A DNA stretch of 64,000 nt, from assembly GCA_026387455.1 (NCBI GenBank), contig JAPLLR010000016.1:6358-70357 (forward strand), given 5' to 3'. The notes beneath the pieces are model-generated. The model was not told where the DNA came from, did no database searches, and worked only from the letters and a program-made list of their open reading frames with translations. A program made the translations under genes and the position numbers. This DNA comes from Candidatus Omnitrophota bacterium. Lineage in GTDB: Bacteria; Omnitrophota; Gorgyraeia; Gygaellales; Profunditerraquicolaceae. Of the stretch, positions 3,162 through 60,209 are shown one piece after another; within the stretch, counting starts at the first letter, position 1; each line of letters opens with the position of its first letter.

Positions 3162-4127
3162 TTACCATTTGAATCCTATCCCCGCTTTGACGGTTACGTC
3201 TTTGCCATCTTTTAGTGCCTGTAAAAAGATATCGCCGCAGCCGTTAAGGATAGATTTGTTAAGTTTCAGGTTTATTCCCAGTTCTTTGTGTAGGTTGTTT
3301 CTTAATTTTAATTCAAGATTTGTCCTGTTTGCAATCCTGCACTCTGCCCCAAAGACGATGCTGCGGATCTTTCCTTCTTCGTAAGGCATCTCAAATAAGA
3401 GTCCGAGTTTTTCGAATATTCTCCACGAGCCAAAGAGCAGAAGTTTTTTCTTCTCTGGCTTTAAACCTATTCCTAGTTCGTATTCCAGACCACGCTTTGC
3501 CGGCTTACCCAGACTCACCTGAAAATTGAATCCGGAGTCTAACTCTTTATTCAGGACATAGGATACGCGGTTTTTCTCGGTTATATCCCAGTAGCCTTTA
3601 AAGGTGATGCTGTGGGCAATTTTTTCCTTTCGCTTTAAGCCGGTCTTGGTATAGGTATAAATGATTTGATTTTGTTTGTTCACTTCCCAGGCGCCGACAA
3701 GGATAAGGGTGTCGTATAAGTCATTTTCTTTTGCTATTAGGAAGCTGAGCCGATTATAAGCATCAACCTGCCATTTTCCGCTAAGTTTTAGTATGCTCAG
3801 GTGTGTCCTGCCTGTGGAATCTTTGCTGGTTATACTGAAGGCTAGCTCATCAGCTCTTGCGTCGATGATCTCGCCGGCTAGGGTCAACTTGTCTGCGGAC
3901 GGATTATTTTCTCTATCCAGCGTAAGTGCTAGATTGTGCCCATTATCCAAAGACCACTTTCCTGAAAGTCTTAGCTGTTGTGGTACGCCTGAGGGCAGGG
4001 GCTGTTTGACGCGGTAGGTAAGGGCGTTAGTTCTATCGATATCAAACTCTCCATCCAGCGCTACGCGCATGATTTTGAGCCTGCCGGAGGGGTCGATACC
4101 GTATTCTACTGTTTCATTCTTTCGCAT
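3162..4127 (-). CDS. Hypothetical protein, beta-rich and repetitive, with no signal peptide.
   Basis: A 321-aa ORF convergent with the upstream gene. It has a repetitive K/G/L-rich beta-strand-like composition and no recognisable motif. Confidence 0.4.
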   Translation of the reverse strand: MRKNETVEYGIDPSGRLKIMRVALDGEFDIDRTNALTYRVKQPLPSGVPQQLRLSGKWSLDNGHNLALTLDRENNPSADKLTLAGEIIDARADELAFSITSKDSTGRTHLSILKLSGKWQVDAYNRLSFLIAKENDLYDTLILVGAWEVNKQNQIIYTYTKTGLKRKEKIAHSITFKGYWDITEKNRVSYVLNKELDSGFNFQVSLGKPAKRGLEYELGIGLKPEKKKLLLFGSWRIFEKLGLLFEMPYEEGKIRSIVFGAECRIANRTNLELKLRNNLHKELGINLKLNKSILNGCGDIFLQALKDGKDVTVKAGIGFKW

Positions 4128-5870: not shown

Positions 5871-5898
5871 TTGACAATTTTAGGAAATGTGCTATACT
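5871..5898 (+). promoter_or_regulatory. Sigma70-like promoter (TTGACA, 16-nt spacer, TATACT) with a leader of about 120 nt for the cold-shock gene.
   Basis: Near-consensus -35 and -10 hexamers with correct spacing. Long 5' UTRs are typical of cspA-type genes. Confidence 0.5.
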
Positions 5899-6018
5899 CC
5901 TTTCAGTAGTAAATAAGATTAGGAGTCTAGAGGCCGCGAGGTTTTTGATAACTAACCTGGCGGTTTTTTTATATCTGCTGTTATTTACTATAAATTGAAG
6001 GGAAGGAGGTAGTAAATA

Positions 6019-6219
6019 ATGGCAAAAGGAAAAGTGAAGTGGTTTTCAGATCAGAAGGGTTATGGGTTTATCACACCTGAGTCGGGTAGCGATGTGTTTG
6101 TGCATCATAGCGCGATCCAGGGTGAGGGCTATAAGTCTTTAGCCGAAGGACAGGATGTCGAGTTTGATATCGAAAAAGGTCCTAAGGGTGAGCAGGCTAC
6201 TAAAGTTGTAAAACTTTAA
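6019..6219 (+). CDS. cspA: Cold-shock protein (CspA family).
   Basis: [34 protein letters not shown]... is a canonical cold-shock domain with RNP1/RNP2 motifs. A strong AGGAGG RBS is present. Confidence 0.9.
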
Positions 6220-6228
6220 CCTGATTCA

Positions 6229-6266
6229 AACAAAGCCCGGCTTCATAAAGAGGCCGGGCTTTTTAT
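6229..6266 (+). terminator. Rho-independent terminator after the first csp gene.
   Basis: AAGCCCGGC-ttcataaagag-GCCGGGCTTTTTATTT: a perfect GC-rich stem followed by a T-tract. Confidence 0.8.
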
Positions 6267-6315
6267 TTGCCCCTGTGGGGTATTTTACTTACCCCTAATA
6301 GAGGGCTTATATTAA

Positions 6316-6374
6316 CCCCTCGCCTAAACATCCCGAAAATCTCTTCGATATTTTCGGGATAGGCTTCGGGGTAG
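6316..6374 (+). repeat. Structured intergenic element, copy A: CCTCGCCTAAAC - hairpin - AGGCTTCGGG. The stems differ between copies but stay base-paired.
   Basis: Shares its flanks with copies at 33103-33168 (+) and 59164-59230 (-). The central 11-bp stem has a different sequence in each copy but remains self-complementary. Confidence 0.6.
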
Positions 6375-6458
6375 GCCCCTTCCTTAATAGGATAGGAAGG
6401 GCCACCCCCGTGGGGTAGTTTACCTACCCGTAATAGCGGGTAAATTAAGGAGGTTCTT

Positions 6459-6659
6459 ATGCATACAGGAACAATCAAGAAATTGGTCCGCGAAAGAGGT
6501 TTTGGTTTTGTCAGTGATACAGACGGCAGAGAGTTGTTCTTTCACCAGTCTGGGCTGATTGACGCTAAGTTTGATACTTTAAATGAGGGGCAGGCGGTAA
6601 CTTTTGAGGTTGAGAAATCAGATAAGGGGCCGCGGGCGATCGATGTGCGCATTGCCTAA
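6459..6659 (+). CDS. Cold-shock domain protein (second copy).
   Basis: GTIKKLVRERGFGFVSDTDGRELFFHQSGL is a cold-shock domain. An AAGGAGG RBS lies 7 nt upstream. Confidence 0.85.
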   Translation: MHTGTIKKLVRERGFGFVSDTDGRELFFHQSGLIDAKFDTLNEGQAVTFEVEKSDKGPRAIDVRIA

Positions 6660-15158: not shown

Positions 15159-15188
15159 GCTTGTGTGATATAATAGGCAAAAATTATA

Positions 15189-15286
15189 CACCTGGCCTAA
15201 TAGGAATGGCCAGTATTTCATCCTAGAAAGGATGCACCCAGCATACCTTTTAGCTGGGGTGCAACTTTCTATGAAAGGAAGTGAGT
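15189..15286 (+). repeat. Modular hairpin repeat (CACCTGGCC-TAATAGGAA-TGGCCAG; TCATCCTAGAAAGGATG; GCACCCAGC...GCTGGGGTGC) forming the 5' leader of the downstream gene.
   Basis: The same module order recurs at 20191-20288 and 34392-34662, and partial versions occur at 530-582 and 60156-60209. Confidence 0.6.
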
Positions 15287-16813
15287 ATGTTAAAGAAAAA
15301 CGGATTCGATAACGATAAGTACTTGAAAGAGCAGACCGTGGCGATCACAGACCGGGTGAAGAAGTTCGATAACAAGCTTTACTTAGAGTTCGGGGGTAAG
15401 CTTTGTTTTGACTATCACGCTGCTCGCGTTCTTCCGGGCTATGACCCTAATGTCAAGATCAGGCTGTTGCAGGAGCTAAAAAACAAGATAGATATAGTGC
15501 TTTGTATCTATGCCGGGGATATCGAGCGGGGCAGGGTGCGCGGAGATTTCGGGATCACATATGATTCTGCTACCTTGAAACTCATCGATGACCTGCGTAA
15601 GTGGGGCCTAGATATCCTTTCTGTTGTGATCACTCGCTTTGCCAATCAGCCCTCGGCGATTATCTTTAAGAATAAGCTTGAGCGCCGCGGGGTAAAAGTC
15701 AACCTGCATTACCCTATCGACGGCTATCCTGCGGATGTGAATAAGATCGCCAGCGAGAATGGATTCGGCAAGAACGAATACATTCAGACCAAGAATCCTA
15801 TTGTAGTGATCACCGCGCCCGGGCCTAATAGCGGAAAGCTTTCCACCTGCCTTTCTCAGCTTTACCATGACCATAAGAGGGGCGTTAATTCCGGCTACGC
15901 TAAGTTCGAGACATTTCCTATCTGGAATTTAGCGCTTAAGCATCCCGTAAACGTGGCTTATGAAGCGGCTACCGCGGATATCCAGGATTTTAATCTGGTC
16001 GACCCTTTTCATTTAAATAAATACAATAAAACCGCCATAAATTATAACCGCGATGTAGAAAGTTTCCCGATATTGAGACTGATCTTAAACCGGATCTTTG
16101 ATAAGAATGCTAACTTACCGATGTATAACTCACCTACGGATATGGGGGTCAACCGTGCGTGGTTTGGTATCGTTGACGATAAGGCGGTGCAGGACGCGGC
16201 AAAGCAGGAGCTTATCCGTAGGTATTTCCGCTATAATACCGAGTATATCCTGGGTATAGAGAAAAAAGAGACGGTGGATAGGGTAATGATGTTGATGGAG
16301 GAGATGGGGGTCAAGCCCACGGATCGGACCGTACTGGAAGTGGCGCGTAAATCAGCTGATGAGGCAGAGGTAAATGGTAAGGGTAATGAGGGGATCTACT
16401 GCGGCGCAGCCCTGCAGCTGAATGACGGACGCATTATTACCGGAAAAAATTCTAAATTTATGCATGCGGCTTCCGCGCTGATCCTGAATGCGGTAAAGCA
16501 GCTGGCCAATATTCCCGATGAGATACTTCTATTATCCCCGCATATCATCAGTCAGATCGCCAAGCTTAAAGAAGGAATCCTGGATGCCGACTCCGAGAGT
16601 CTTGATCTTGAGGAGTCCCTGATAGCTTTATCTATAAGCGCAACCACCAATCACACCGCGGAGCTGGCGATGAATAAACTGGTGGAACTCAGTGGCTGTG
16701 AGGTGCAAATGACCCAAATCCACACTCCCGGAGACGAGGTGGGGCTTAAGCGGCTGGGGGTGAACCTTACTACAGACGGAAAGTTCTCTTCACGCAATCT
16801 TTTTGTCGCCTGA
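15287..16813 (+). CDS. DUF1846 / UPF0371 family protein.
   Basis: The N-terminus (FDNDKYLKEQTVAITDRVKKFDNKLYLEFGGKLCFDYHAARVLPGYDPN) and the 510-aa length match UPF0371. Confidence 0.6.
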   Translation: MLKKNGFDNDKYLKEQTVAITDRVKKFDNKLYLEFGGKLCFDYHAARVLPGYDPNVKIRLLQELKNKIDIVLCIYAGDIERGRVRGDFGITYDSATLKLIDDLRKWGLDILSVVITRFANQPSAIIFKNKLERRGVKVNLHYPIDGYPADVNKIASENGFGKNEYIQTKNPIVVITAPGPNSGKLSTCLSQLYHDHKRGVNSGYAKFETFPIWNLALKHPVNVAYEAATADIQDFNLVDPFHLNKYNKTAINYNRDVESFPILRLILNRIFDKNANLPMYNSPTDMGVNRAWFGIVDDKAVQDAAKQELIRRYFRYNTEYILGIEKKETVDRVMMLMEEMGVKPTDRTVLEVARKSADEAEVNGKGNEGIYCGAALQLNDGRIITGKNSKFMHAASALILNAVKQLANIPDEILLLSPHIISQIAKLKEGILDADSESLDLEESLIALSISATTNHTAELAMNKLVELSGCEVQMTQIHTPGDEVGLKRLGVNLTTDGKFSSRNLFVA

Positions 16814-19204: not shown

Positions 19205-20205
19205 ATGCCCCAAGAAGCAGGTATCCAGGAAAGAGCTAGGAAGTATTCGCTAAAGAAATATTCTCTGGCTCTGTTGGATACCGTAGTTACGCTTGCCCTG
19301 CTTCTGATTTTTTTGGCTACAGGTTTATCCCGGGCTCTTACTGAGGGCCTGGGATTTATTTTTTCAAGCAGCTATTTCACTGTTCCTGTTTACCTGCTCG
19401 TTGTAATTCTTGCCTACTATTTGATCACTTTTCCACTTACTTTTTACCAATCCTATACTCTTGAGCACGAATTTTCTCTGTCCCGGCAAAGCGTAAAATC
19501 GGGGTATTCTGGATATTTTTCTCTATTGTCATGGCTAATCTTTTGCCTGTATTAATCATACCTTTATTTTTTAAATATAAGAAACTTGAGGATGAAACAC
19601 TGCGCCAGAGGATAATTGTTTTAGCGGGCAAGATGAAAGTAAGGGTTCTGGATGTTTTTGAGATAGACTTAAGCAAAAAGTCTTTAAAAGGCAATGCCGC
19701 TTTCGTGGGGGCGGGGAACACGCGAAGAGTGCTTTTGGCAGACACCTTAAAAGATAAATACACCTATGAGGAGATAGAGGTGATTCTGGCGCATGAGTTC
19801 GCGCACTACCGCTTGAAGCATTTATTGAAGCTAATATTGGTCAATTCCGCGGTGACTCTGGTAACTTTTTTTGTAATTTATGCCACCAGCAGTTCGGCGC
19901 TGTGGTTGTTTGGGTTGTCTTCGTATCTAGAGCTTGCGGCTTTACCATTACTCTTTTTTTATTTTGCGGTTTTTGGTGTAATTTTGCAGCCGTTTGGGGC
20001 TTTTATCAGCCGCTGTTTCGAGCGTAGTGCTGATAGGATGGCCATACAGGTGACCGGCCTGAAAGACGCCTTTATCTCGACCATGGATAAGTTGGGTGAT
20101 CAGAATCTTTCGGATCGTAATCCGCACCCGCTTATTAAATTTTACTTTTTCGACCATCCGCCCATAGATGAGCGGATCAAGATGGCAAAACACCTGGCCT
20201 TATAG
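19205..20205 (+). pseudogene. M48-family (Ste24/HtpX-like) zinc metalloprotease, disrupted by a frameshift near 19531-19555 and an apparent internal deletion of about 40 codons.
   Basis: ORF 19205-19555 carries the N-terminal LEHEFSLSRQ region. ORF 19531-20205, in another frame, carries PLFFKYKKLEDETLRQRI...ILAHEFAHYRLKH (HEXXH). The two transmembrane helices normally between them are missing. Confidence 0.55.
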
Positions 20206-20288
20206 GAAAGGCCAGTGTTCCGTCCTAAAAAGGACGCACCCAGCCTACTTATTAGCTGGGGTGTAGCTTTCTGCGTAAGGAGGTTAAG
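20191..20288 (+). repeat. Modular hairpin repeat (TTATAGGA-loop family) overlapping the stop codon of the M48 gene and forming the leader of the next gene.
   Basis: CACCTGGCC-TTATAGGAA-AGGCCAGTG, then TCCGTCCTAAAAAGGACG, then GCACCCAGC..GCTGGGGTG, then AGCTTTCTGCGTAAGGAGG. The TAG stop of the M48 CDS lies inside the TTATAGGA loop. Confidence 0.6.
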
Positions 20289-20696
20289 ATGAAAAGAATA
20301 GCTGGGTTTTTGTTTGTATTATTTTTTGTTGTGTCTTCTGGTTCATCAGTTTTCGCACAAGGGTTCAGGGGCATGAGTGATGTTGTCCCACCGCCATTTG
20401 TGATTTATCCTAGTGAGCGTGCTGACATAAGCGGCAAAGACGTGCTCACCCTTAAGTGGAAGACCCCGGGAAGTTTTGATATTGACCACGTGGAGTTTAA
20501 GCTGTATAAAGGATATATCACCGCGGATTCCAACTTGGTCTATAAAGAGGATGTTGATCCGGTTGAGTCTGAGGTGGATGTGAAGGCCGATCTTTTGCAA
20601 GATGGCCAGACTTACACCATGTATTTACGTTCGATATCACGCGAGGGCTACAAAAGTGACCGGGTGTTTAATTCTTTTCAGGTAATTAAGAAATAA
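20289..20696 (+). CDS. Small secreted hypothetical protein (signal peptide).
   Basis: The N-terminal hydrophobic stretch ends in AQG. A strong AAGGAGG RBS is present. No known motif. Confidence 0.5.
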   Translation: MKRIAGFLFVLFFVVSSGSSVFAQGFRGMSDVVPPPFVIYPSERADISGKDVLTLKWKTPGSFDIDHVEFKLYKGYITADSNLVYKEDVDPVESEVDVKADLLQDGQTYTMYLRSISREGYKSDRVFNSFQVIKK

Positions 20697-22718: not shown

Positions 22719-22807
22719 AGGGGAATCATAGCAGACTCGTTGCCTTGTTTCAACTAATATTTAACCGTGGGTGCCGAGGCTTGCTTTTCGCTAAATAATT
22801 ATATATG

Positions 22808-23160
22808 TTATTGTTTAGCGGGTCCTGCCTTGGCTTGTCCTGCGCGCGGCTTTTTGCCGTGCTCGGATCAAGCCAAGTCACCCGCTAAACCTACCATTTA
22901 TCAGCAAGCTTGTTGTTAGCGGCTGACTTGGACTGCACCTTGCTTTATCGGATAAGCAAGTGTGCTCTTCTGGGCTGATTTCGAGTGGTTCCTCGGACGC
23001 CCCGCTCAAAGCGACCCTCGTCACCCTTGACTGAAAGTTTCAGTTGGCGGGAGGCTTGGCTTGGTTTCGAGCAGGGCTAGAAATGAGCGCAGGTGCGGCA
23101 CAACGCTGGGCCGCACCAAGCGTCCCTGCGAGAAACAAGACAAGCCGACCAGCCATGAGT
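22808..23160. repeat. GC-rich highly structured element of about 350 bp, copy 1 (second copy at 52048-52455).
   Basis: Long nested inverted repeats (GTTTAGCGGGTCCTGCCTTGGCTTG ... CAAGCCAAGTCACCCGCTAAAC; GGTGCGGCACAACGCTGGGCCGCACC) and terminal inverted-repeat-like ends. Its GC content is far above the flanking DNA. Confidence 0.7.
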
Positions 23161-28023: not shown

Positions 28024-28026
28024 TAA

Positions 28027-28062
28027 AATTTCTTGCTTTGCTTTCGCAAAGCAAGAAATTCA
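28027..28062 (+). terminator. Perfect hairpin (TTTCTTGCTTTGC-tttc-GCAAAGCAAGAAA) after tRNA-Lys.
   Basis: A 13-bp perfect inverted repeat; the flanks are only moderately U-rich. Confidence 0.5.
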
Positions 28063-28193
28063 TGCCGCAGTCAATTCAAAAAATACGAAGTTCCCGAAGG
28101 GTATCGAAGTCCCCTCTGGGGCGGAGAGATTTTTGGAGCGAATAGGCAAGGGATACAAGTAAAGGCGTCAGAGGAAACTATCCGGGCGGATGG

Positions 28194-28275
28194 CGGAACT
28201 GGCATACGCGATAGCCTTAGGAGCTATTGGGGCAACCCTTGGAGGTTCAAATCCTCTTCCGCCCACTTTAAATTT
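28194..28275 (+). tRNA. tRNA-Leu (anticodon TAG), class II with a long variable arm.
   Basis: Acceptor stem GGGCGGA/TCCGCCC. The D-arm TGGCGGAACTGGCATACGC closely matches Leu tRNAs. Anticodon loop CTTAGGA, variable arm GGGGCAACCC, T-arm GGAGGTTCAAATCCTCT. Confidence 0.85.
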
Positions 28276-28276
28276 T

Positions 28277-28311
28277 CCGACAAGGAAAATTTAAAGTGTA
28301 CTCAAGCGAGC
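28277..28311 (+). terminator. Perfect 14-bp hairpin (CACTTTAAATTTTCC-gacaa-GGAAAATTTAAAGTG) after tRNA-Leu.
   Basis: Perfect inverted repeat directly 3' of the tRNA. Confidence 0.5.
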
Positions 28312-32364: not shown

Positions 32365-33102
32365 ATGAAAGCGCTGATATTAGCGGCAGGGTACGCCACA
32401 AGGCTTTATCCGTTGACCAGGGAATATCCCAAGTCGCTTCTTCCGGTTAATGGCAGCCCGATAATCGATTATATAATTGACAAGCTTGCGCGGGTAGATG
32501 AGATCGAAGAGTTTATCGTTATCACCAACAACAAGTTTTTTAGACAATTTAAGGCTTGGCAAGGCAAACACCGCCTAAAGAAGAAGATCAGCATCGTAAA
32601 TGATCTTACCCGTGATAATGCTACGCGGCTTGGCGCCATCGGGGATATGAATTTTGTGCTAGACAAGAAGCGCATTAAGGAAGACCTGCTGGTTATCGGA
32701 GGGGACAACCTTTTTAGCGGCTGCGTAAACAGATTCTTAGGTTTTGCCAGGAAGTTTTCCGATTGCCCTGTTATCGGGGTTTACGATATAAAGAAAAGAT
32801 CGGAAGCCAGTAAGTACGGCGTCATCAAGTTGGATAAGTCAAAGAGGGTGATTGATTTTCAGGAAAAGCCCGAAGATCCAAAATCAACACTTGTTGCGAT
32901 GTGTCTCTATTATTTTCCAAAAAGAAGGCTGGGGCTTATCCAGGAGTATCTGCATATTAGGGCAAAGAAAGATGACGCGATGGGTTTTTATATAGATTGG
33001 TTGTGTAATCGTGTGCCGGTGTATGGTTACGCGTTCAGCGGTAAATGGTTTGATATAGGGGATCATAAGTTTTATAACGCGGCGAAAAAAAGCTTTAAGT
33101 AA
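32365..33102 (+). CDS. Sugar-phosphate nucleotidyltransferase (NTP_transferase family, RmlA/MurU-like short form).
   Basis: MKALILAAGYATRLYPLTREYPKSLLPV is the canonical nucleotidyltransferase N-terminus. Confidence 0.65.
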   Translation: MKALILAAGYATRLYPLTREYPKSLLPVNGSPIIDYIIDKLARVDEIEEFIVITNNKFFRQFKAWQGKHRLKKKISIVNDLTRDNATRLGAIGDMNFVLDKKRIKEDLLVIGGDNLFSGCVNRFLGFARKFSDCPVIGVYDIKKRSEASKYGVIKLDKSKRVIDFQEKPEDPKSTLVAMCLYYFPKRRLGLIQEYLHIRAKKDDAMGFYIDWLCNRVPVYGYAFSGKWFDIGDHKFYNAAKKSFK

Positions 33103-33168
33103 TCCCTTGCCTAATCGCGCCAAAAATCTTTTCAATATTTTTGGCGCAGGCTTCGGGATTATTTGCCG
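33103..33168 (+). repeat. Structured intergenic element, copy B (same flanks as 6316-6374, different but complementary stem).
   Basis: TCCCTTGCCTAATC-GCGCCAAAAAT-cttttcaat-ATTTTTGGCGC-AGGCTTCGGGATT. It is followed by an AATAGCGGGCAAATAAGGAGG module also seen upstream of the second csp gene. Confidence 0.6.
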
Positions 33169-33203
33169 AACCGCAATAGCGGGCAAATAAGGAGGGTTTC
33201 AAA

Positions 33204-34382: not shown

Positions 34383-34391
34383 CATACAATA

Positions 34392-34662
34392 CACCTGGCC
34401 TTATAGCACCTTGGCATATAGGATTGTCAAGGTGCGTCCCTTCTGGGACGGATAAGCCAGCTGCACAAACAGTGCGCGTTCGCCCAACCTATTGGGCGAG
34501 GCGTGTTCCGTCCTAAAAAGGACGCACCCAGCATACCTTTTAGCTGGGGTGCAGCCTTCTGTTACACCCAACTTTAGCCCCTTCCTTAAAAGGTACAGGA
34601 AGAGCTACCCCTCTGGGGTTATAGGAAAAGTTGGTGTTGTGCTTACTGCACAAGGAGAGAAA
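34392..34662 (+). repeat. Roughly 270-bp compound array of hairpin repeat modules forming the entire metK-ahcY intergenic region and the ahcY leader.
   Basis: Contains at least eight stem-loops, including the CACCTGGCC-TTATAG, TCCGTCCTAAAAAGGACG, GCACCCAGC..GCTGGGGTGC and CCTTCCTTAAAAGGTACAGGAAG modules shared with other intergenic regions. Confidence 0.6.
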
Positions 34663-35919
34663 ATGAAATACGACATCAAAAATATCAAGTTAGCTAAGAA
34701 GGGTGCGTTACGCATCGAGTGGGCAAGCAATAATATGCCGGTGCTGCGCATGATTGAGGAAAGATTCAAGAAAGAATTGCCCCTGAAGGGCTTAAGGGTC
34801 GCCGCTTGTCTGCACGTGACTACCGAGACTGGTGTTTTGATGGAGGTGTTAAAGTCCGGCGGTGCCGAGATATATCTATGTGCCTCGAATCCGCTGTCAA
34901 CTCAGGATGATGTAGCGGCATCATTAGCGGCAAATTTAAAGATCTCGGTATTCTCTATTAAAGGAGAGAATACTAAGACCTACTACAAACACATGCAGTC
35001 CGCATTGGCTGCCAAGCCGCATATCACTATGGATGACGGCGCGGATCTAGTGAGTACTATCCACCAGCGGCCGGAGTCTATGCACAGCAATATAATCGGT
35101 GGTACGGAAGAGACCACTACCGGAGTGATCAGGCTGCGTGCCTTGGCTGAACAGGGAAAGTTGCGCTATCCTATCATCGCGGTCAATGACGCGTTGACTA
35201 AGCATTTGTTCGATAACCGTTACGGGACCGGGCAGTCTACTTTAGACGGTATTATTCGTGCTACCAACGATCTGGTCGCAGGCTCTAATTTCGTGGTCTG
35301 TGGCTACGGCTGGTGCGGTAAGGGCGTGGCTATGCGCGCTAAAGGATTAGGAGCGCGGGTTATAGTTACGGAAATCGATCCTTTGCGCGGCCTTGAGGCT
35401 ACCCTTGACGGTTTTGATGTGATGCCCATTAAGGATGCGGCTAAGGTCGGTGATATCTTTGTCACAGTCACCGGAGATATCAATGTCATCCGGGCAGAGC
35501 ATTTCAAGACCATGAAAGACGGTGCCATAGTGTCAAATTCCGGGCACTTTAACGTGGAGCTGGACCTTCCGGGATTAGCTAAGTTAAGCAAGAAGAGAAG
35601 GTATATCCGCGAATTCGTGGAGGAGTTTACTTTAAGAAACGGCCGCAAGGTAAACATTCTAGGTGAGGGGCGTTTGATCAACCTGGCTGCAGCAGAAGGC
35701 CATCCGGCACAGGTCATGGATATGTCATTTGCGAATCAGGCGCTTTCCGCAGAATATATGGCTAAGAATTACAGGAAATTAAAGAAAACTGTATTTAAGG
35801 TTCCGGATGATATCGATAAGAACATCGCAAAGCTGAAATTGAAATCTATGGGTATTTCTATTGATATATTGACTCCGGAGCAGAAGAAATATTTGGCTAG
35901 TTGGGAGATGGGCACCTGA
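34663..35919 (+). CDS. ahcY: Adenosylhomocysteinase.
   Basis: Matches the AhcY family (NAD-binding GYGWCGKG). The start is taken at the ATG after a GGAGAG RBS; the ORF track's upstream extension lies inside the repeat array. Confidence 0.9.
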
Positions 35920-36921: not shown

Positions 36922-38244
36922 ATGGGAAGACGGCCGATTGATATTGATAAGTTAGTAATGGATCTGATTAATAGCGATGACTCAGGAGCAAAGAAAGAGA
37001 TCGCCAAGAAAATCCAGGATATTGCCTATAAAAAAGGGATTTATCCTTCAAGTATTCATGAGTTATATATTGCGCGCGGCCGCGGTGAATTCAGTGGTTT
37101 TACCGTTCCAGCGTTTAATTTAAGAAGCATGACTTATGATTTGGCCAGGGGGATGTTCAGGGTTGCCAAAAGAAACAATTCCGGTGCTTTTATTTTTGAG
37201 ATCGCTAAATCTGAGATGGGCTACACTGCCCAGCCTCCGGTTGAATACACCAGTGTTATTCTGGGAGCTGCTATTAAAGAAGGCTGGACCGGCCCGGTAT
37301 TTATTCAGGGCGACCATTTTCAGGCCAATGCCAAAAAGTTCCAGGAAGATCCGGAAAAAGAGTTAAAAGTCCTGCAGGATCTGATAGTTGATGCTGTCGG
37401 CGGCGGTTTTTACAATATCGATATCGATTCATCCACGCTTGTGGATTTATCTAAGAAAGATATCAAGAAACAGCAGAAGCATAATTATGAAGTATGCGCA
37501 AAGCTTGCCCAGTTTATCCGCCGTATCGAGCCTAAGGGCATTACGGTTTCTGTGGGCGGTGAAATTGGCGAGGTTGGGCATCAGAATTCTACTCCTGAAG
37601 ACCTGCGCGCGTTTATGGAAGGATTTAAGGAGAGGCTGCGTAAGGGGCTGACTGGGATCAGTAAGATTTCCATTCAGACCGGGACTTCCCATGGTGGGAT
37701 AGTATTACCTGACGGAACTATAGCTCAGGTAAAGCTGGATTTTGATACCTTAAGGAATCTTTCGGAAATCGCTAAGAAGGAATTCGGCTTGGGAGGTGCG
37801 GTTCAACATGGAGCTTCAACTTTACCGTCTGAAGCTTTTCATAAGTTCCCTGAAAATGACTGTTGTGAAGTACACCTGGCGACAGAGTTTCAGAATATGA
37901 TTTATGACTCTAAACATTTCCCAATGGATCTAAAGAAGAAGATGTATGATTGGCTTAAGGTAAATGCTGCCAATGAGGCAAAAGCCGGGGAAACCGAAGA
38001 GCAGTTCTTCTATAAGACCCGCAAAAAAGCCTTAGGCCAGTTTAAGAAGGATATTATGGGCTTGCCCCAGGCTACGCGCGACGCCATTGCCGCTGAGATC
38101 GAGGCCAGGTTTGAGTTCTTGTTTAAACAGTTAAACGCTTTGAATAACAAGCAGCTGGTGGATAAATACGTCATCTTAAAGCGTGTGATCATCCGTAAGC
38201 GCACCGAAACGAATGTGGTGCATGACGGCGAAGGCGCGGATTAA
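36922..38244 (+). CDS. fba: Class II fructose-bisphosphate aldolase family protein (long form).
   Basis: Blocks TVPAFNL, VFIQGDHF, YNIDIDSS, VSVGGEIGEVG, IQTGTSHGG and QHGASTL align with class II FBA motifs. It lies next to pfkA. Confidence 0.65.
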   Translation: MGRRPIDIDKLVMDLINSDDSGAKKEIAKKIQDIAYKKGIYPSSIHELYIARGRGEFSGFTVPAFNLRSMTYDLARGMFRVAKRNNSGAFIFEIAKSEMGYTAQPPVEYTSVILGAAIKEGWTGPVFIQGDHFQANAKKFQEDPEKELKVLQDLIVDAVGGGFYNIDIDSSTLVDLSKKDIKKQQKHNYEVCAKLAQFIRRIEPKGITVSVGGEIGEVGHQNSTPEDLRAFMEGFKERLRKGLTGISKISIQTGTSHGGIVLPDGTIAQVKLDFDTLRNLSEIAKKEFGLGGAVQHGASTLPSEAFHKFPENDCCEVHLATEFQNMIYDSKHFPMDLKKKMYDWLKVNAANEAKAGETEEQFFYKTRKKALGQFKKDIMGLPQATRDAIAAEIEARFEFLFKQLNALNNKQLVDKYVILKRVIIRKRTETNVVHDGEGAD

Positions 38245-38384
38245 ATGAGGACATGACTTATGGAGCCGCCGCAACGCGGCAGGCGATCATAAGGCCCTTC
38301 CTTTATCGGATGGGAAGGCCTACCCCTGTGGGGTAAGTCATATGTCCGAATTTATCCCGTCCCTGGCCAATCTGAAAGATTGTC

Positions 38385-38456
38385 CAGGACTAGTCCTGAG
38401 AAATTTTACAAATTTCTCAGGGCGAATGTGTGAAAATTTTTTAAAAATTTTCACAC
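38385..38456 (+). promoter_or_regulatory. Three consecutive perfect palindromes upstream of ilvD (CAGGACTAGTCCTG; CTGAGAAATTT-tac-AAATTTCTCAG; GTGTGAAAATTTT-tt-AAAAATTTTCACAC).
   Basis: Perfect dyad symmetries with 10- and 13-bp arms, 50-120 nt upstream of the ilvD ATG. They are AT-rich and resemble operator sites for a dimeric regulator. Confidence 0.5.
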
Positions 38457-38506
38457 GGCATATGAGACGGGATTAATGAAATTATTAGTAGAGATCGGGG
38501 GTATTT

Positions 38507-40159: not shown

Positions 40160-40350
40160 ATCTGCCCCGCCTCATAAACGCCGCAAAGTTTCTCGGCGCT
40201 TCGCGCCAGTAAACCTTGCTGGCATTCGGCGGGATTAAGCCCCTTCCTTATAGGAGAGGAAGGGCTACCCATTTTGGGTAATTCGCGTTTTGACTTACTC
40301 ACACCGCCTGCCTGCGGCAGGCAGGTGTTCGTAAGTCAAGCGTTCATTAA

Positions 40351-42015
40351 ATGACTGGCGCAGAAATATTATTAGAGAGTTTAAAGCGCGAAGGGGTAGA
40401 GGTGATGTTCGGCTACCCCGGAGGCCAGGTGCTGCCTATTTTTGATAAACTTTATGATTCGGATATTAAGTTTATTCTTACCCGTCATGAGCAGGGAGCA
40501 GCTCATGCTGCCGACGGTTACGCCCGCGCCACCGGCAAGCCCGGGGTGTGTCTGGCTACTTCCGGCCCGGGTGCTACGAATCTGGTGACCGGAATCGCCA
40601 ACGCCTGCATGGATTCTATTCCTATGATAGCTATCACCGGCCAGGTGAAGACTTTTCTTATAGGTAACGACGCTTTTCAGGAAGCGGATGTGACCGGGAT
40701 CACCCGCCCTATCACCAAGCATAATTATCTGGTTAAAGATGTGAAAGAGCTGGCTTCTACTATACGTGAGGCTTTTTATATCGCAACCAGCGGAAGGCCG
40801 GGGCCGGTGCTTATCGATATCCCTTCTGATGTGCAGCTTGCGGATACGGAATTTATCTGGCCTGAGGTTCCCGAGATACGTAGCTACAAACCGACTTACT
40901 TCGGTCATCCCGGACAAATCAAAAAAGCCGCTAAATTAATCTCTGACTCAAAAAGGCCTATCCTATATATAGGGGGAGGAGTGATTTCTTCAGGCGCGCA
41001 TAAGGAATTGCGCATTTTGGCGGAAAGCCTTAAGGCTCCCTTGACCTGGACCCTGATGGGTATAGGTGCTTTTCCTGGTGATCATGAATTGTCTTTGGGG
41101 ATGCTGGGTATGCATGGCACAGCTTACGCTAACCACGCTATTATGGAGTCAGACCTGATTATCGCTATAGGCGCCCGTTTTGACGATAGGGTGACCGGAA
41201 GAATAGATGCTTTTGCACCGCACGCCAAGGTGATCCATATTGATATTGATCCTTCTTCTATAAGCAAGAACGTAAGAGTGGATATACCGATTGGGGGAGA
41301 CGCCAAGAATATAATTGGCGAGCTGCTTGAGCAGATCAAGAAAGCTCCAGATACTACAGAGTGGCTTAAGACTGTGGAGTTGTGGAAAAAGAAATATCCC
41401 ATGAAATATAAGGATGAGGGCAAGCTTAAGCCGCAGTATGTGGTGGAAGAGATTTATAATCTGACCAAAGGAGATGCCATTATTACCACCGAGGTGGGGC
41501 AGAATCAGATGTGGGCTGCCCAGTGGTATAAGTATAATCATCCGCGTACTTTTATTTCTAGCGGTGGATTAGGCACTATGGGTTTTGGATTTCCGGCGGC
41601 AATGGGCGCTAAAGTTGCTTACCCGGAAAAACTTGTGTTTGATATCGCCGGAGACGGCTCAATACAGATGAATATTCAGGAATTGGCTACTTGTGTTGCG
41701 AATAAGATACATGTGAAGGTAGCGATCCTTAATAACGGATATTTAGGCATGGTGCGCCAGTGGCAGGAGCTTTTTTATAAGCGCCGTTATTCGCATGTGG
41801 CTATCACGGCTCCGGATTTTGTTAAGCTTGCGGAAAGTTTTGGTGCGGTAGGTATTCGCGTGACTAAGAAAGAAGAAGTGCGGGGTGCACTTGAGAAAGC
41901 AGCCAAAATTGACAATACCGTGTTCATTGATTTTGTGGTGGAGGGAGAGGAGAATGTGTATCCCATGGTTCCAGCGGGAAAGGCCATCAACGAAATCATC
42001 GGAGGTCTAGCTTAA
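40351..42015 (+). CDS. ilvB: Acetolactate synthase large subunit (biosynthetic type).
   Basis: Matches the ThDP-dependent enzyme family ([12 protein letters not shown]...[14 protein letters not shown]...[12 protein letters not shown]). Confidence 0.9.
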
Positions 42016-52026: not shown

Positions 52027-52047
52027 TCCGTCCACTATTTTACTTAT

Positions 52048-52455
52048 ATTATTGTTTAGCGGGTCCTGCCTTGGCTTGTCCTGCGCGCGGCTTATTGCCG
52101 TGCTCGGATCAAGCCAAGTCACCCGTTAAACCTATCAGCCATTATAAATTAGCAAGCTAATTTCTTCAGCTGGCGGGAGGCTTGGATTGATTTCGAGCGG
52201 GGTATTGGACGCCTCGCTCAAAGCGACCCTCGTCACCCTTGACTGAAAGCTTCAGTTGGCGGAAGGCTTGGCTTGGTTTCGAGCAGGGCATGGAAGCCCC
52301 GAGCGGGCAAGGTTGCCCCTCATTTCACATATAGGGCAGAGCGAGGGGCTGGAAATGAGCGCAGGTGCGGCACGCTGGGCCGCACCAAGCGTCCCTGCGA
52401 GAAACAAGACAAGACTACCGCCATGAGTCCGCGAGAAACAGGACAAGGCAGACGC
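52048..52455. repeat. GC-rich structured element of about 400 bp, copy 2 (copy 1 at 22808-23160). It carries an extra 55-bp insertion and a tandemly duplicated 3' end.
   Basis: The 5' 90 bp are near-identical to copy 1, with the same nested inverted repeats. The small ORFs predicted on it have no support. Confidence 0.7.
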
Positions 52456-57431: not shown

Positions 57432-58407
57432 GCGTTTTATCCTGATTGTAAGTTTTATTTTAAGTGTTTCTTTTGTTTACGCTGCTGATGAGCCTTCCGT
57501 AGTTTCCAGCGTGGATGAGGATGAACCGCCGGCTGCAGCTGCAACTGGTTCCTCTGATGCTCCCTCTGACCAAACTATCAGTGATTTCTCCCTTGCTGGA
57601 TACGGCGAAAAGGGCAAGAAGACCTGGGACCTTGCCGGCAAGACCGCGGATATCTTTGTCGATACTGTAAAACTATCTGACGTGGTGGGGAATCTCTACG
57701 GAAAAGAAGAGGATATCCGGCTTACCGCAGACGAGGGTGATTTTAACAAAGTAAGCGGTAAGGTGCATCTGGAAGATAATGTGGTGATCACCACATCCAG
57801 TGGCACGCGTATGTTTACTAAGTCTCTTGATTGGGACCGCAAGAACCAGCAAGTGACTACTGATGACGTGGTATGTATTAAGCGCGATACCATGGTGGCA
57901 ACTGCTAAGGGCGCCTGGGGAAATCCAACGCTCAAGTCCGTGTCTTTGAAAAAGAATGTGCGCCTGGATATTATGCTGGTCGCAAAAGGGGCACCCGCCA
58001 GCGATAAAGAAAAGATCGTTATTACCTGCGATGGACCGCTGGAAATAGATTACGCGCAAAATGTGGCTAAATTCAGAGATAATGTCAGGGTTGACCGCGA
58101 AGATTCGCAGATATACAGTGATACTTTAGATTTGTATTTTTTGACCGGCGACACTGCTAAGGCCGATTCTCCCGCGGCAAAAGAGGTAACGGGTGCTGCG
58201 GGGATGATGGGTATGGGCAGTAAGATCGATAAGATCGTCTGCCGCGGTCATGTTAAAGTCATCCGCGGCGAGAATGTTTCAAATAGCGAAGAAGCGGTAT
58301 ATTCTGCGGTGGATAATAAGTTAGTGTTAACCGGCCAGCCAAAGCTGCTCATCTACTCGACAAAGGATTTTTCTAATGCACCTGCTGGAAACAAAGGGCC
58401 TTTCTAA
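57421..58407 (+). CDS. LPS-transport periplasmic protein of the LptC/LptA (OstA-like) family with a signal peptide.
   Basis: An N-terminal signal/anchor is followed by two OstA-like beta-jellyroll repeat units. Located between kdsC and lptB, as in canonical kdsD-kdsC-lptC-lptA-lptB operons. Confidence 0.6.
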   Translation: MIFKRFILIVSFILSVSFVYAADEPSVVSSVDEDEPPAAAATGSSDAPSDQTISDFSLAGYGEKGKKTWDLAGKTADIFVDTVKLSDVVGNLYGKEEDIRLTADEGDFNKVSGKVHLEDNVVITTSSGTRMFTKSLDWDRKNQQVTTDDVVCIKRDTMVATAKGAWGNPTLKSVSLKKNVRLDIMLVAKGAPASDKEKIVITCDGPLEIDYAQNVAKFRDNVRVDREDSQIYSDTLDLYFLTGDTAKADSPAAKEVTGAAGMMGMGSKIDKIVCRGHVKVIRGENVSNSEEAVYSAVDNKLVLTGQPKLLIYSTKDFSNAPAGNKGPF

Positions 58408-59098
58408 ATCGTACGACTCTAAAGAAGTCGTCAAGGGCGTAGACATTTTGGTCAAGCGCGGCGAGATCGTCGGACTTTTGGGGCCAAACGGCGCCGGTAA
58501 GACTACCACGTTCTACATGATCGTCGGGATCGTTCCGCCGAATAGCGGAAGGATCATCTTTGATAACCACGATATTACTAACCTGCCTATACATGAGCGT
58601 AGCCGCTACGGCATCGGGTATTTGGCTCAAGAGGCTTCTATTTTCAGGAAGCTTACCGTGCAGGAAAACATTATGGCTATCTTAGAGACTTTGCCTATTA
58701 ATAGGGTGGAGCGCAAGCGCCGGCTGGAAAGTCTGCTTGAGGAGTTGCACATTGCGCATTTGGCAAAACACAAGGCTTTTACTTTGTCCGGGGGCGAGCG
58801 TCGCAGGCTTGAAATCACTCGCGCGCTGGTGACAAATCCATCGTTTATACTTCTGGATGAGCCTTTTTCCGGGATAGACCCGATCGTAGTCAATGAGGCC
58901 CAGCAGATCATCAGAGAATTAAAAGAAAAGGGGTTAGGTATACTCTTGACCGATCACAATGTGCGTGAAACGCTTTCCATCACCGATAGAGCTTATCTGA
59001 TCGCGCACGGAAAGATTTTGATTTCAGGCTCAGCAGATGAACTGATCAATGACCCGCAGGCTCGCCAGTTATATTTAGGTGAGAACTTTAGAATGTAA
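58376..59098 (+). CDS. lptB: LPS export ABC transporter ATP-binding protein.
   Basis: Walker A (GPNGAGKTT), signature (LSGGERRRLEITRAL), Walker B (ILLDEPFSGID); typical LptB length. Confidence 0.85.
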   Translation: MHLLETKGLSKSYDSKEVVKGVDILVKRGEIVGLLGPNGAGKTTTFYMIVGIVPPNSGRIIFDNHDITNLPIHERSRYGIGYLAQEASIFRKLTVQENIMAILETLPINRVERKRRLESLLEELHIAHLAKHKAFTLSGGERRRLEITRALVTNPSFILLDEPFSGIDPIVVNEAQQIIRELKEKGLGILLTDHNVRETLSITDRAYLIAHGKILISGSADELINDPQARQLYLGENFRM

Positions 59099-59102
59099 AT
59101 GA

Positions 59103-59156
59103 GGCCACAACTTACGCGACTTGCCCCGCAAAGCGGGGCAGGGAGCGTAAGTTGTT
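59103..59156 (+). terminator. Compound nested hairpin after lptB (GGCCACAACTTACGC...TTGCCCCGC-aaa-GCGGGGCAG...GCGTAAGTTGTTTGGCC).
   Basis: A 15-bp outer stem encloses a GC-rich inner hairpin. A similarly built element follows ilvD at about 40285-40330. Confidence 0.5.
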
Positions 59157-59163
59157 TGGCCGA

Positions 59164-59230
59164 ATTTATCCCGAAGCCTGCCTATAAACTTTCAAAGAAA
59201 GTTTTTAGGCGTTTAGGCGAGGGATAAATG
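59164..59230 (-). repeat. Structured intergenic element, copy C, in reverse orientation relative to copies A and B.
   Basis: The reverse complement reads CCCTCGCCTAAAC-GCCTAAAAACTTTC-tttg-AAAGTTTATAGGC-AGGCTTCGGGATAAAT. Confidence 0.55.
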
Positions 59231-59259: not shown

Positions 59260-60138
59260 ATGAAAACAGAAGTCAAGAAGTTGGATGATTCAAAAAGAGA
59301 GTTGAATATTGAGGTAAGCGGAGAGATGGTCTCTAAGAAATTCGAGGACGCTTTCGCCCAGATCAGTAAAGAGGCAAAGGTTCCCGGATTTCGCTCGGGA
59401 CATGCCCCGCGGGACATGATCGAGAAGCAGTACGGCCCGCACGCCCATGAGCAGGTGCTTAAGGAGTTGGTTCCGGATATCTATAACAAGGCTATCGAAC
59501 AGGAAAAGCTGGATGTCATAGAGATGCCCGAGATCACCGATGTAAAGCTTGATCGCACCACGTTGTCTTTTAAAGCCAAGGTCGAGGTCTCTCCGGAGAT
59601 CAAGCTAGGAAGTTACAAAGGCATCGCCATAAATTATAAAAGAGTGAGCGTCAGCTCCGATGACGTCAAGCGCAGCATTGATTCCATAAAAGAATCCCGC
59701 AAGGCCGAGACTCTTGACGACAGTTTTGCCAAAAGTCTTGGGTATCCCAGCCTAAAAGAGTTTGAGGGCGCTATCGAGAGACAGATTTTCATCAATAAGG
59801 AAAATCAGGAGCACCAGAGGATCGAGTTCGATCTTATTGAGACGCTTTTGAAGAATCTGGATTTTAAGGCTCCCCAGGTATTGATCGGTCGGCAGCTGCA
59901 GGATTTGACCCGACAGGCTAAGGTGGATCTAGCGATGAAAGGCATGCCGCGCGAAAAAATTGAGAGCCAGAACGATACCTTAACCAAAGAGCTTACGCCG
60001 CAGGCAGAAAAGCAGGTGAGGGTATATTTGGTGTTGGCTGAGGTCGCTAAGAAAGAGAATATTTCCTTAGACGATCATATGCCGCGTAAGGTAATCGAGT
60101 TTTTGATGCGCGAAGCGGTGTGGAAAGAAAACGCTTAA
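59260..60138 (+). CDS. tig: Trigger factor, short form lacking the PPIase domain.
   Basis: The N-terminal ribosome-binding domain with the GFRSGHAP signature and a C-terminal arm domain are present. At 292 aa it is well short of a typical trigger factor (about 430 aa). A GAAAGGAAG RBS is present. Confidence 0.7.
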   Translation: MKTEVKKLDDSKRELNIEVSGEMVSKKFEDAFAQISKEAKVPGFRSGHAPRDMIEKQYGPHAHEQVLKELVPDIYNKAIEQEKLDVIEMPEITDVKLDRTTLSFKAKVEVSPEIKLGSYKGIAINYKRVSVSSDDVKRSIDSIKESRKAETLDDSFAKSLGYPSLKEFEGAIERQIFINKENQEHQRIEFDLIETLLKNLDFKAPQVLIGRQLQDLTRQAKVDLAMKGMPREKIESQNDTLTKELTPQAEKQVRVYLVLAEVAKKENISLDDHMPRKVIEFLMREAVWKENA

Positions 60139-60209
60139 AAAGAATTTTATCAAAGCACCTGGCCTTATAGGATAGGCCAGTGTTCCGCATTCTGCGGAAG
60201 GAGGGTATA

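Follow-up and report, generated by a model that had tools for sequence, protein, structure and literature searches.

The 64,000-nucleotide (nt) stretch of a Candidatus Omnitrophota bacterium analyzed here (contig JAPLLR010000016.1, hereafter the window) contains three copies of a 59-nt hairpin element, which we named H1. We conclude, with a probability of roughly 0.6, that H1 is a module of interspersed modular intergenic palindromes of the REP/BIME/BOX/Correia kind, similar to miniature inverted-repeat transposable elements (MITEs), which has spread across Omnitrophota-type genomes. Its intergenic confinement, both orientations, doublets and tandems, identical copies, subfamilies, turnover, decay, and Watson-Crick stems match REP/BIME, BOX, and Correia repeats and not a dedicated regulatory RNA. 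The initial annotation, made from the letters of the window alone, had proposed a structured element in three copies and had named a functional RNA, a protein-binding DNA structure, a terminator, or a REP/MITE-like repeat as explanations. The last of these, tolerant of orientation and probably acting at the DNA level, turned out to be the best fit among these options. The three copies are as follows:

Positions 6315-6373, plus strand: H1 copy A, flanked by csp genes on both sides; covariance-model score 80.0 bits.
Positions 33102-33160, plus strand: H1 copy B; covariance-model score 76.0 bits.
Positions 59167-59225, minus strand: H1 copy C; covariance-model score 77.5 bits.

The three copies lie at the places first assigned to them. 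The flanks CCTYGCCTAAWC and AGGCTTCGGG occur with zero mismatches in the window only at these three sites, and the central segment is exactly 31 nt long in each. The element has the plan (A/G)(U/C)CCC-UY-GCCU-AAWC-[31 nt]-AGGC-UUC-GGG(A/G)U and comprises, in order, helix P1 (AUCCC/GGGAU), a 2×3 internal loop (UY/UUC), helix P2 (GCCU/AGGC), a 4-nt bulge (AAWC), and a variable helix P3. Copy A has P1 (A)CCCC/GGGG(U), loop UC/UUC, P2 GCCU/AGGC, bulge AAAC, and an 11-bp P3, ATCCCGAAAAT/ATTTTCGGGAT. P3 of copy B is also 11 bp long (GCGCCAAAAAT/ATTTTTGGCGC), and that of copy C comprises 14 bp with one A·A mismatch (GCCTAAAAACTTTC/GAAAGTTTATAGGC). In the 31-nt centers of A, B, and C, the outer 5 to 6 bp vary and complementarity is retained. 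Each copy was predicted to fold into a single long hairpin (minimum free energy [MFE] of -25 to -28 kcal/mol, z-scores of -5.0 to -6.2; copy A, -27.9 and -6.2), and none of 200 shuffled sequences was as stable. The reverse complements were equally stable on folding. Across the family, the center is mostly 29 to 33 nt long; about one-third of the copies are longer and carry an extra hairpin at the apex. The hairpin base is conserved, and the distal stem is nearly free in sequence provided that a near-perfect palindrome persists.

To collect further copies, we scanned one genome per species of the GTDB set with the exact flank pattern and a gap of 20 to 50 nt. This yielded 97 stretches in 40 species genomes (loci of this set are referred to by L numbers), compared to about 8 expected by chance from the pattern length, assuming equal base frequencies. 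The genomes are labeled Candidatus Omnitrophota/Omnitrophica in 25 cases and third-party annotation (TPA) bins of Planctomycetales/Planctomycetia in 9 (34/40 together), and one genome each is labeled Ratteibacteria, Patescibacteria group, and Deltaproteobacteria. In the three remaining genomes (L016, L089, and L091), the centers are non-palindromic and resemble chance matches. The MetK protein of the window is 95% identical to that of the "Planctomycetales" bin CAYHBB01.

A covariance model (R1) was built from 68 copies. In the window, only A, B, and C scored above noise (76 to 80 bits; next match, 17 bits). In the window and the loci together (0.74 Mb), the model found 136 matches, including subfamilies with altered flanks. 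There are several H1 copies per genome; the 64-kb window holds 3 canonical copies, and 16 kb of CAYHBB01 has 6 matches, local densities that were counted in partial sequences and not in a complete genome. The initial annotation had stated that hundreds of near-identical copies would indicate a recently spread MITE rather than a structure under selection. The result lies in between: there are many copies, most of them different from one another, and identical ones were found within single genomes (JAUYCX01, PCWA01, CAYHAE01, CAZFPS01, and CAYHBB01, each at separate loci).

Because the loci were selected by their exact flanks, P1 and P2 are bound to be invariant among them. However, about 30 extra model matches showed P1 and P2 varying with compensation (e.g., GCUU/AAGC, CUCC/GGAG, and CCGCC/GGCGG). 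In an alignment made by MAFFT from sequence only, 88% of the cells were paired, compared to 27 to 54% in slid controls, and 6/6 outer P3 pairs had changed on both sides. When 136 copies were aligned by fitting to the model, 90% of the cells were paired and 18/20 pairs had two-sided changes; none of 500 shuffles reached the observed values. Pairing and two-sided changes beyond the controls indicate that the H1 structure is maintained, in line with the initial description of a stem that varies in sequence and keeps its pairing.

The same description had taken covariation as a hallmark of a selected structure. Maintenance of the pairing was borne out, but a dedicated functional RNA was not, because G·U pairs are rare, there is no strand preference, the stem at metK appears to have been replaced, and sites were gained and lost (see below). 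G·U pairs made up 20/1128 stem pairs on the forward strand and 40/1170 on the reverse complement (2 to 3%). Such a near-pure Watson-Crick stem fits a palindrome that pairs on both strands or in DNA, and not a one-strand RNA. Splitting the G·U bias by context gave no RNA-level signal, since sense copies showed no forward-strand preference (11 versus 22). A folding-energy test for the transcribed strand was discarded: the reverse complement was stabler by ~2.5 kcal/mol, but this difference stems from the conserved loops (GAA/GA versus UC/UUC), the variable stem being equal on the two strands. A K-turn reading of the GAA/GA loop on the reverse strand was also dropped, because by inspection the bulged strand lacks the tandem G·A arrangement.

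H1 nearly always leads a multi-hairpin cassette, a point that the initial annotation had missed. In 65/136 copies, it is followed by a hairpin named H2i with the pattern xAATTY-N4...AACTTAYG...CRTAAGTT...N4-TYATTy. The closing pairs of H2i covary (T-A, 28; A-T, 24; C-G, 4), and its 4-bp helix is perfect in 50/65 copies, with at least 11 different sequences. Alternative followers are a hairpin of the AAATTTGCC...GGCAAATT type (H2ii) or a series of modules M3-M4-H2ii. H1 and H1 variants also form inverted doublets (L012, L059, L026, L014, L080, L094, and L086) and tandem units (L030 and L009).

After spurious short open reading frames (ORFs) were discounted, 133/136 matches were intergenic. In-frame insertions inside genes, as known for Rickettsia RPEs, were considered for 17 ORF-flagged matches and rejected for all of them: they were short spurious ORFs, chance matches, or, in GC-rich L049, one long ORF on the opposite strand that we judged spurious. 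The neighbors are dozens of unrelated housekeeping genes and tRNAs and do not belong to a single gene family or pathway. Downstream genes include metK (in three species), csp, tig, and ilvB, and others that, from their N-termini, we take to be acpP, rpsP, rplL, clpP, prs, adk, atpE, yajC, and more. The downstream gene usually starts within ~100 nt of H1. Between co-directional coding sequences, 71 copies are in sense and 18 in antisense orientation (~80:20); next to tRNAs, antisense copies prevail (about 16, versus 3 sense). Where the cassette is in sense, the H2 tail meets AAGGAGG-ATG (at 0 to 8 nt) or an ATG without a Shine-Dalgarno (SD) sequence at dozens of loci. In antisense cassettes, it adjoins a tRNA 3′ end or provides the TAA stop codon of the upstream gene. 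Copy C is inverted, as had been noted: it lies antisense to its two plus-strand neighbors, lptB (58376-59098) and tig (59260-60138). An antisense H1 is also located just 5′ of tig in L093, the two Tig proteins being 33% identical. Among the window genes identified, metK scored 560 bits.

Comparison with relatives revealed turnover of sites. Positions 32.3 to 48.0 kb of the window are syntenic with CAYHBB010000022 (L092, L095) at 86 to 90% nucleotide identity. Only one of the 6 model matches in the syntenic 16 kb of CAYHBB01, the metK site, is common to the window. In all syntenic comparisons taken together, 9 orthologous sites had the element and 16 lacked it. The metK site carries a cassette in the window, L092, and L077 and none in L075. 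Between the window and L092, the whole P3 stem at this site is a different variant, and the L092 variant is duplicated elsewhere in its genome. The metK center is too divergent for a protein distance of 5%, which argues for copy replacement and not for stepwise compensation. At L092:3172-3248, we detected a clean 77-nt insertion of H1 alone, flanked by TAA...TAA, between a TAA stop codon and a leader hairpin that is present in the window. This insertion and the metK copy of that genome, 3.8 kb apart, have the same 49-nt center.

Loss and divergence were also evident in the window, where we found two copies in addition to the three listed at first:

Positions 40166-40235, plus strand: diverged copy D (subfamily H1b), between ilvD and ilvB; covariance-model score 16.2 bits.
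Positions 28090-28154, minus strand: decayed relic E; covariance-model score 10.1 bits.

Copy D has the layout CCCGCC-TCATAAAC-P3-ATTC-GGCGGG, with an apical GGCGC/GCGCC hairpin in P3, and a predicted MFE of -32.7 kcal/mol (z, -4.1). Its flank type recurs at L092:4296-4350 and L095:5750-5804. Relic E lies 3′ of a tRNA gene and an H2ii-type hairpin (28025-28062); what survives of the flanks on the plus strand is CCCGAAGG...GAATAGGCAAGGGAT, without the central palindrome. It is syntenic with an intact canonical H1 at L075:7016-7074.

Duplicated gene ends flank some of the insertions. At the pfkA site, stop and start codons overlap in the window (TGATG), while L092 and L077 have cassettes with GGAGATGGGKAC on both sides. 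The L092 cassette is 137 nt long and has a duplicated GGAGATGGGTAC, which preserves the end of the upstream gene and the SD of the downstream gene. L077, with 70% MetK identity, shows the same duplication with a cassette of another type. Either the insertion is old and recombination between the repeats later removed it from the window, or the site is a hot spot that was hit repeatedly. Between ilvC and leuA, the cassettes of L095 and L009 are followed by a degenerate second copy of the C-terminal codons of ilvC; the window spacer at this site is 24 nt long. Flanking direct repeats above the 99th percentile of mismatched controls were found for 10/128 copies, including window copy A, and their lengths vary (3, 12, 18, 31, and 36 nt). 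We found neither a fixed target site nor a fixed target-site duplication: there is no constant motif 5′ of H1, where the flanks vary (..TATC, ..TGCC, ..TAATC, and others), and the TAA...TAA flanks do not generalize.

These data suggest the following mechanism. The conserved asymmetric base would be recognized by a protein that acts in trans to copy or move H1. HUH/Y1 enzymes read REP and IS200/IS605 hairpins, and, by analogy, the protein would most likely act on a DNA hairpin extruded from single-stranded DNA. Watson-Crick pairing on both strands would then result from the need to form the structure in DNA, aided by arm-to-arm templated repair and copy replacement. Cotranscription with the neighbors would give very stable RNA hairpins, usually just 5′ of the ribosome-binding site (RBS) or start codon or past tRNA 3′ ends. 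Selection would tolerate only insertions and orientations that are harmless or mildly helpful to expression, which would account for the excess of sense copies (80:20) and for the strict confinement to intergenic DNA. Consequences at the RNA level of predicted hairpins of -25 to -33 kcal/mol, such as insulating or stabilizing transcripts, are plausible. The sense bias and the few long-kept sites (tig, tRNA-Arg/His, and metK) suggest that the placement of copies and their tolerance or use are under selection. A leader or insulator role and a processing role, treated below as alternatives, could also come on top of this mechanism.

Several observations weigh against a mobile palindrome of this kind. 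In a tblastn search of the window and the 97 loci (~0.8 Mb from ~40 genomes), E. coli RayT had no match with an E value under 2.5, and a scan of the same sequences for the HUH...Y..NP motif recovered the positive control alone. The REP-type GTAG tetranucleotide is absent from the 5′ flanks of H1. The variable length of the direct repeats fits neither HUH enzymes, which make no duplication, nor DDE MITEs, which make a fixed one. Part of the strong conservation seen in the base sequence is due to the search by exact flanks. Finally, some positions are kept at long distance: 5′ of tig (33% protein identity), in the tRNA-Arg/tRNA-His spacer (two genomes), and at the pfkA site (70% MetK identity). 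Such positions could reflect local function or insertion hot spots.

Of the known systems, REP/BIME/REPIN-RAYT elements of Enterobacteria and Pseudomonas share many properties with H1: a short imperfect extragenic palindrome, probably in many copies per genome; sequence subtypes; arms that change together; singles, inverted doublets of subtypes, and mosaic clusters; cotranscription with neighbors; and conserved irregularities at the hairpin foot, the part that a protein would read. In contrast to REP, H1 has no GTAG/GTGG-type 5′ tetranucleotide, and the 0.8 Mb searched yielded no RAYT gene. H1 is also longer (at least 59 nt, with three helices) and is located mostly immediately 5′ of start sites, not in 3′ untranslated regions (UTRs). 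In addition, its base sequence is common to ~37 species-level genomes, whereas REP families are usually genus or species specific, and duplicated gene ends enclose some insertions. Two further kinds of modular intergenic repeat, BOX of Streptococcus pneumoniae and Correia (CREE/NEMIS) of Neisseria, likewise have stable transcript hairpins, presence/absence polymorphism between strains, no self-encoded transposase, and a location beside neighboring genes, with an influence on these genes that is plausible for H1 as well. They have no sequence similarity to H1. The 26-bp terminal inverted repeats and TA target duplication of Correia were not seen in H1; BOX has a fixed A-B(n)-C module order, whereas H1 combines with at least four hairpin modules (H2i, H2ii, M3, and M4) in either orientation.

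The hairpins of IS200/IS605 ends are recognized as single-stranded DNA, and their targeting of the lagging strand predicts copies that are biased in orientation with respect to the genes. Like H1, the IS200/IS605 subterminal hairpins and PATE have conserved imperfections and no terminal inverted repeats. Unlike them, H1 has no conserved adjacent target tetranucleotide, no TnpA/TnpB was found in the sequences searched, and some copies have direct repeats; H2 is far too variable for a would-be right end. MITEs resemble H1 in presence/absence polymorphism and near-identical copies within a genome. However, the cassette ends (ATCCCTCGCC... and ...GCTCATTWA) are not the inverted repeats of a DDE-derived MITE, and there is no fixed-length duplication (3 to 36 nt).

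In Rfam searches of the window at the gathering score and at E≤1, no family overlapped the elements; the comparison, which the initial annotation had proposed, gave just three tRNAs and a subthreshold cspA-leader match. Searches of the accessible literature for Omnitrophota RNA motifs, intergenic elements, and palindromes returned no account of such an element. Thus, H1 is apparently a new, so far undescribed family of a known kind of element. Its unusual traits are the single hairpin base over ~37 species-level genomes, the preferential placement just 5′ of start sites, and the gene-end duplications at some insertions. Omnitrophota have not been cultured; most of them are ultra-small, and their genomes are compact. 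Many of the spacers between their genes are filled by the repeat, often as far as the start codon. The repeat is a marker of genome dynamics, with gain, loss, and replacement visible between genomes ~10% apart, and a handle for finding the protein that reads the conserved hairpin base. It is also a likely confounder for covariation-based RNA discovery, since palindromic DNA repeats mimic RNA covariation.

According to a first alternative, which we regard as unlikely, H1 and H2 form a portable 5′-UTR leader or insulator cassette that stabilizes mRNA or shields the RBS, its base being read by a phylum-specific RNA-binding protein. The sense orientation of ~80% of the copies between co-directional genes is consistent with this, as is the end of H2 at 0 to 8 nt before AAGGAGG-ATG or at an SD-less ATG. 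Moreover, downstream genes are often highly expressed (csp, acpP, rpsP, rplL-like, atpE-like, clpP, tig, and metK; genes of the loci according to their N-termini), and the cassette is kept 5′ of metK at 70% MetK identity and 5′ of tig at 33%. However, 20% of the copies, among them window copy C and almost every copy beside a tRNA, lie antisense, and rplL-like genes have a sense H1 in L027 and an antisense H1 in L019. In addition, the transcribed strand is not enriched in G·U, only 1/6 sites is shared with the relative at 86 to 90% nucleotide identity, metK of L075 has no cassette, and H1 can insert alone 5′ of a pre-existing leader hairpin.

Less likely again, the cassettes would serve as lineage-wide portable punctuation read by a conserved host protein, and/or would spread by a copy-in process that duplicates 12 to 36 nt of the target (gene end, stop codon, or SD). 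If copy-in holds, a cassette could enter even between overlapping genes with neither of them inactivated, as illustrated by the pfkA site. Either process would be a mechanism undescribed for REP, MITE, or BOX elements. Should the gene-end duplications reflect the insertion mechanism, this would be a way for mobile DNA to colonize genomes nearly without free intergenic space.

A role as RNA punctuation marks, in which an endoribonuclease would cut at the hairpin feet, is doubtful. Such cuts would separate cistrons, set mRNA 5′ ends near start codons and tRNA or mRNA 3′ ends, and leave protective hairpins, in analogy to the RNase III sites between phage T7 genes. The H2 foot adjoins a functional boundary both ways, namely a start codon or SD if sense and a tRNA 3′ end or upstream stop codon (lptB, 59096-59098; 38242-38244) if antisense, and the many SD-less downstream genes (CTCATTWA-ATG) would suit processed, near-leaderless mRNAs. 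However, close abutment is expected anyway in compact genomes with spacers of 0 to 50 nt, turnover argues that no single site is required, and the loops are asymmetric (UC/UUC versus GAA/GA, depending on orientation), so that one RNA-recognizing enzyme would not see both.

An intrinsic, possibly bidirectional terminator or an integron attC-like recombination site is very improbable: a stable hairpin right after stop codons in both orientations and a 5′ flank (GCCTAAAC) resembling the attC R″ box RYYYAAC would fit, but no T-run follows H1 on either strand (the sequence after H1 is GGGRTWAATT), so that the terminator role suggested initially is not supported, a scan around copy A flagged the csp1 terminator (6232-6262) and a small hairpin (6268-6282) and not H1, a promoter would not fit into the ~100 nt within which the downstream gene usually starts, the R′ box GTT is missing from the 3′ flank, and the neighbors are core housekeeping genes and tRNAs and not a promoterless cassette array. 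The sites called attC have conserved ends and a variable palindromic center of variable length. They share with H1 the conserved outer boxes, the variable palindromic center, extrahelical bases, the placement between a stop codon and the gene that follows, and a structure that matters as a folded single strand. Unlike them, H1 has no GTTRRRY R′ box, occurs in both orientations, and is scattered, not arrayed beside an integrase. A general role as promoter, considered for a weak, 9/12 sigma-70-like match at 6284-6313 just 5′ of copy A, was rejected because the match sits in a duplicated module and most other copies start a few nt past the upstream stop codon.

The cassette modules of the window are as follows:

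Positions 6374-6446, plus strand: remainder of cassette A (M3, M4, and H2ii).
Positions 6374-6403, plus strand: M3 of cassette A, GGCCCCTTCCTT..AGGAAGGGCC.
Positions 6404-6416, plus strand: M4 of cassette A, ACCCCCGTGGGGT.
Positions 6418-6446, plus strand: H2ii of cassette A, GTTTACC..CCCGTAATAGCGGGTAAAT.
Positions 6270-6305, plus strand: partial duplicate of M4 and H2ii, 5′ of copy A.
Positions 33161-33188, plus strand: H2ii of cassette B, ATTTGCC..CCGCAATAGCGG..GCAAAT.
Positions 59096-59166, minus strand: H2i of cassette C, AAATTCGGCC-AAACAACTTACGC...GCGTAAGTTGT-GGCCTCATTTA.
Positions 40239-40350, plus strand: remainder of cassette D (M3, 40239-40265; M4, 40266-40280; H2i, 40280-40350).

Cassette A ends with the SD AAGGAGG (6447-6453), followed by the csp2 ATG at 6459. 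Positions 6270-6305 and 6405-6440 form a 36-nt imperfect direct repeat that brackets H1 and M3 (score 23.5; 99th percentile of mismatched controls, 13). Copy B begins immediately past the TAA that ends a sugar-1-phosphate nucleotidyltransferase gene. The remainder of its cassette (33161-33196) comprises H2ii and the SD AAGGAGGG, with the metK ATG at 33204. The downstream module YAATAGCGGGYAAAT plus AAGGAGG, reported initially as common to A and B, is present in both. In cassette C, the complement of the TTA tail of H2i is the TAA stop codon of lptB (59096-59098). This cassette is 78% identical to an H1-H2i cassette in L060, and the flanking sequence does not align. In cassette D, H2i ends with GTTCATTAA, and the ilvB ATG follows immediately at 40351 without an SD. 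Series of the M3-M4-H2ii type occur in the window in cassettes A and D, which precede different genes, and the H1-M3-M4-H2ii series recurs 5′ of other genes in L010, L074, and L085 (86 to 89% identity).

Many SD-less genes begin right at the H2 tail (..GYTCATTWA-ATG; window 40342-40353, L007, L020, L043, L057, and L086). The tail GCUCAUUWA loosely resembles the NusB/NusE boxA core GCUCUUUAA. The spacer 5′ of ilvD (38245-38506) is an antisense composite of the same module set: a reverse H2i supplies the TAA stop of the upstream gene (38242-38250), its loop holds M3 (~38292-38319) and M4 (38322-38334), and a large reverse H1b-like domain (~38356-38473) closed by TCCCGTC...GACGGGA has three inner hairpins. 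The highly structured 281-nt spacer 3′ of metK (34383-34663) contains M3-M4 nested in a longer hairpin. It has no Rfam match, and an SAH riboswitch does not fit; the following gene, by eye, is presumably ahcY. Hairpins of the H2ii type closed by AAATTT...AAATTT lie directly 3′ of the first two genes of the tRNA cluster (28025-28062 and 28266-28298), without a T-run, and a tRNA followed by such a hairpin was also found in L006 and L033. At L015:219-400, 3′ of an H1 copy, there is a tandem array of a ~60-nt unit (GGGATAAATTCGCCCTACAGATATAATCATTAAYCCCGATGCATTCTTTCAGAACGCAC), which incorporates the 3′ end of H1 and the start of H2. Tandem units composed of a gene-end fragment, H1, and H2 are present at L009:2700-3140 and in L079 and L053, and they leave pseudo-copies of the last codons of the upstream gene (e.g., MPWMKK*) after each cassette.

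A second, unrelated family of leader hairpins is located 5′ of four different genes (15188-15297, 20190-20298, 34480-34561, and 60151-60187). Its modules are CACCTGGCCTWATAGGAWWGGCCAGTG - TTCCGTCCTAAAAAGGACGCA - CCCAGC..GCTGGG, ending in AAGGAGG-ATG, and the copy at 15188 is preceded by an extended -10 promoter-like sequence, TGATATAAT. Two copies (78 to 92% identical) of a ~360-nt intergenic element were found at 22804-23160 and 52045-52428; parts of it are 91 to 95% identical to L074 (CAYHBB01), positions 630-809 and 3929-4018. It may be a small RNA gene, a repeat, or a mobile-element remnant. The subthreshold cspA thermoregulator match in Rfam (31.9 bits; gathering score, 78; E = 1.8e-4) covers the leader and gene of the first csp (5913-6264). 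This gene has a strong promoter-like TTGACA-16-TATACT with TG at 5871-5898 and a canonical terminator at 6232-6262.

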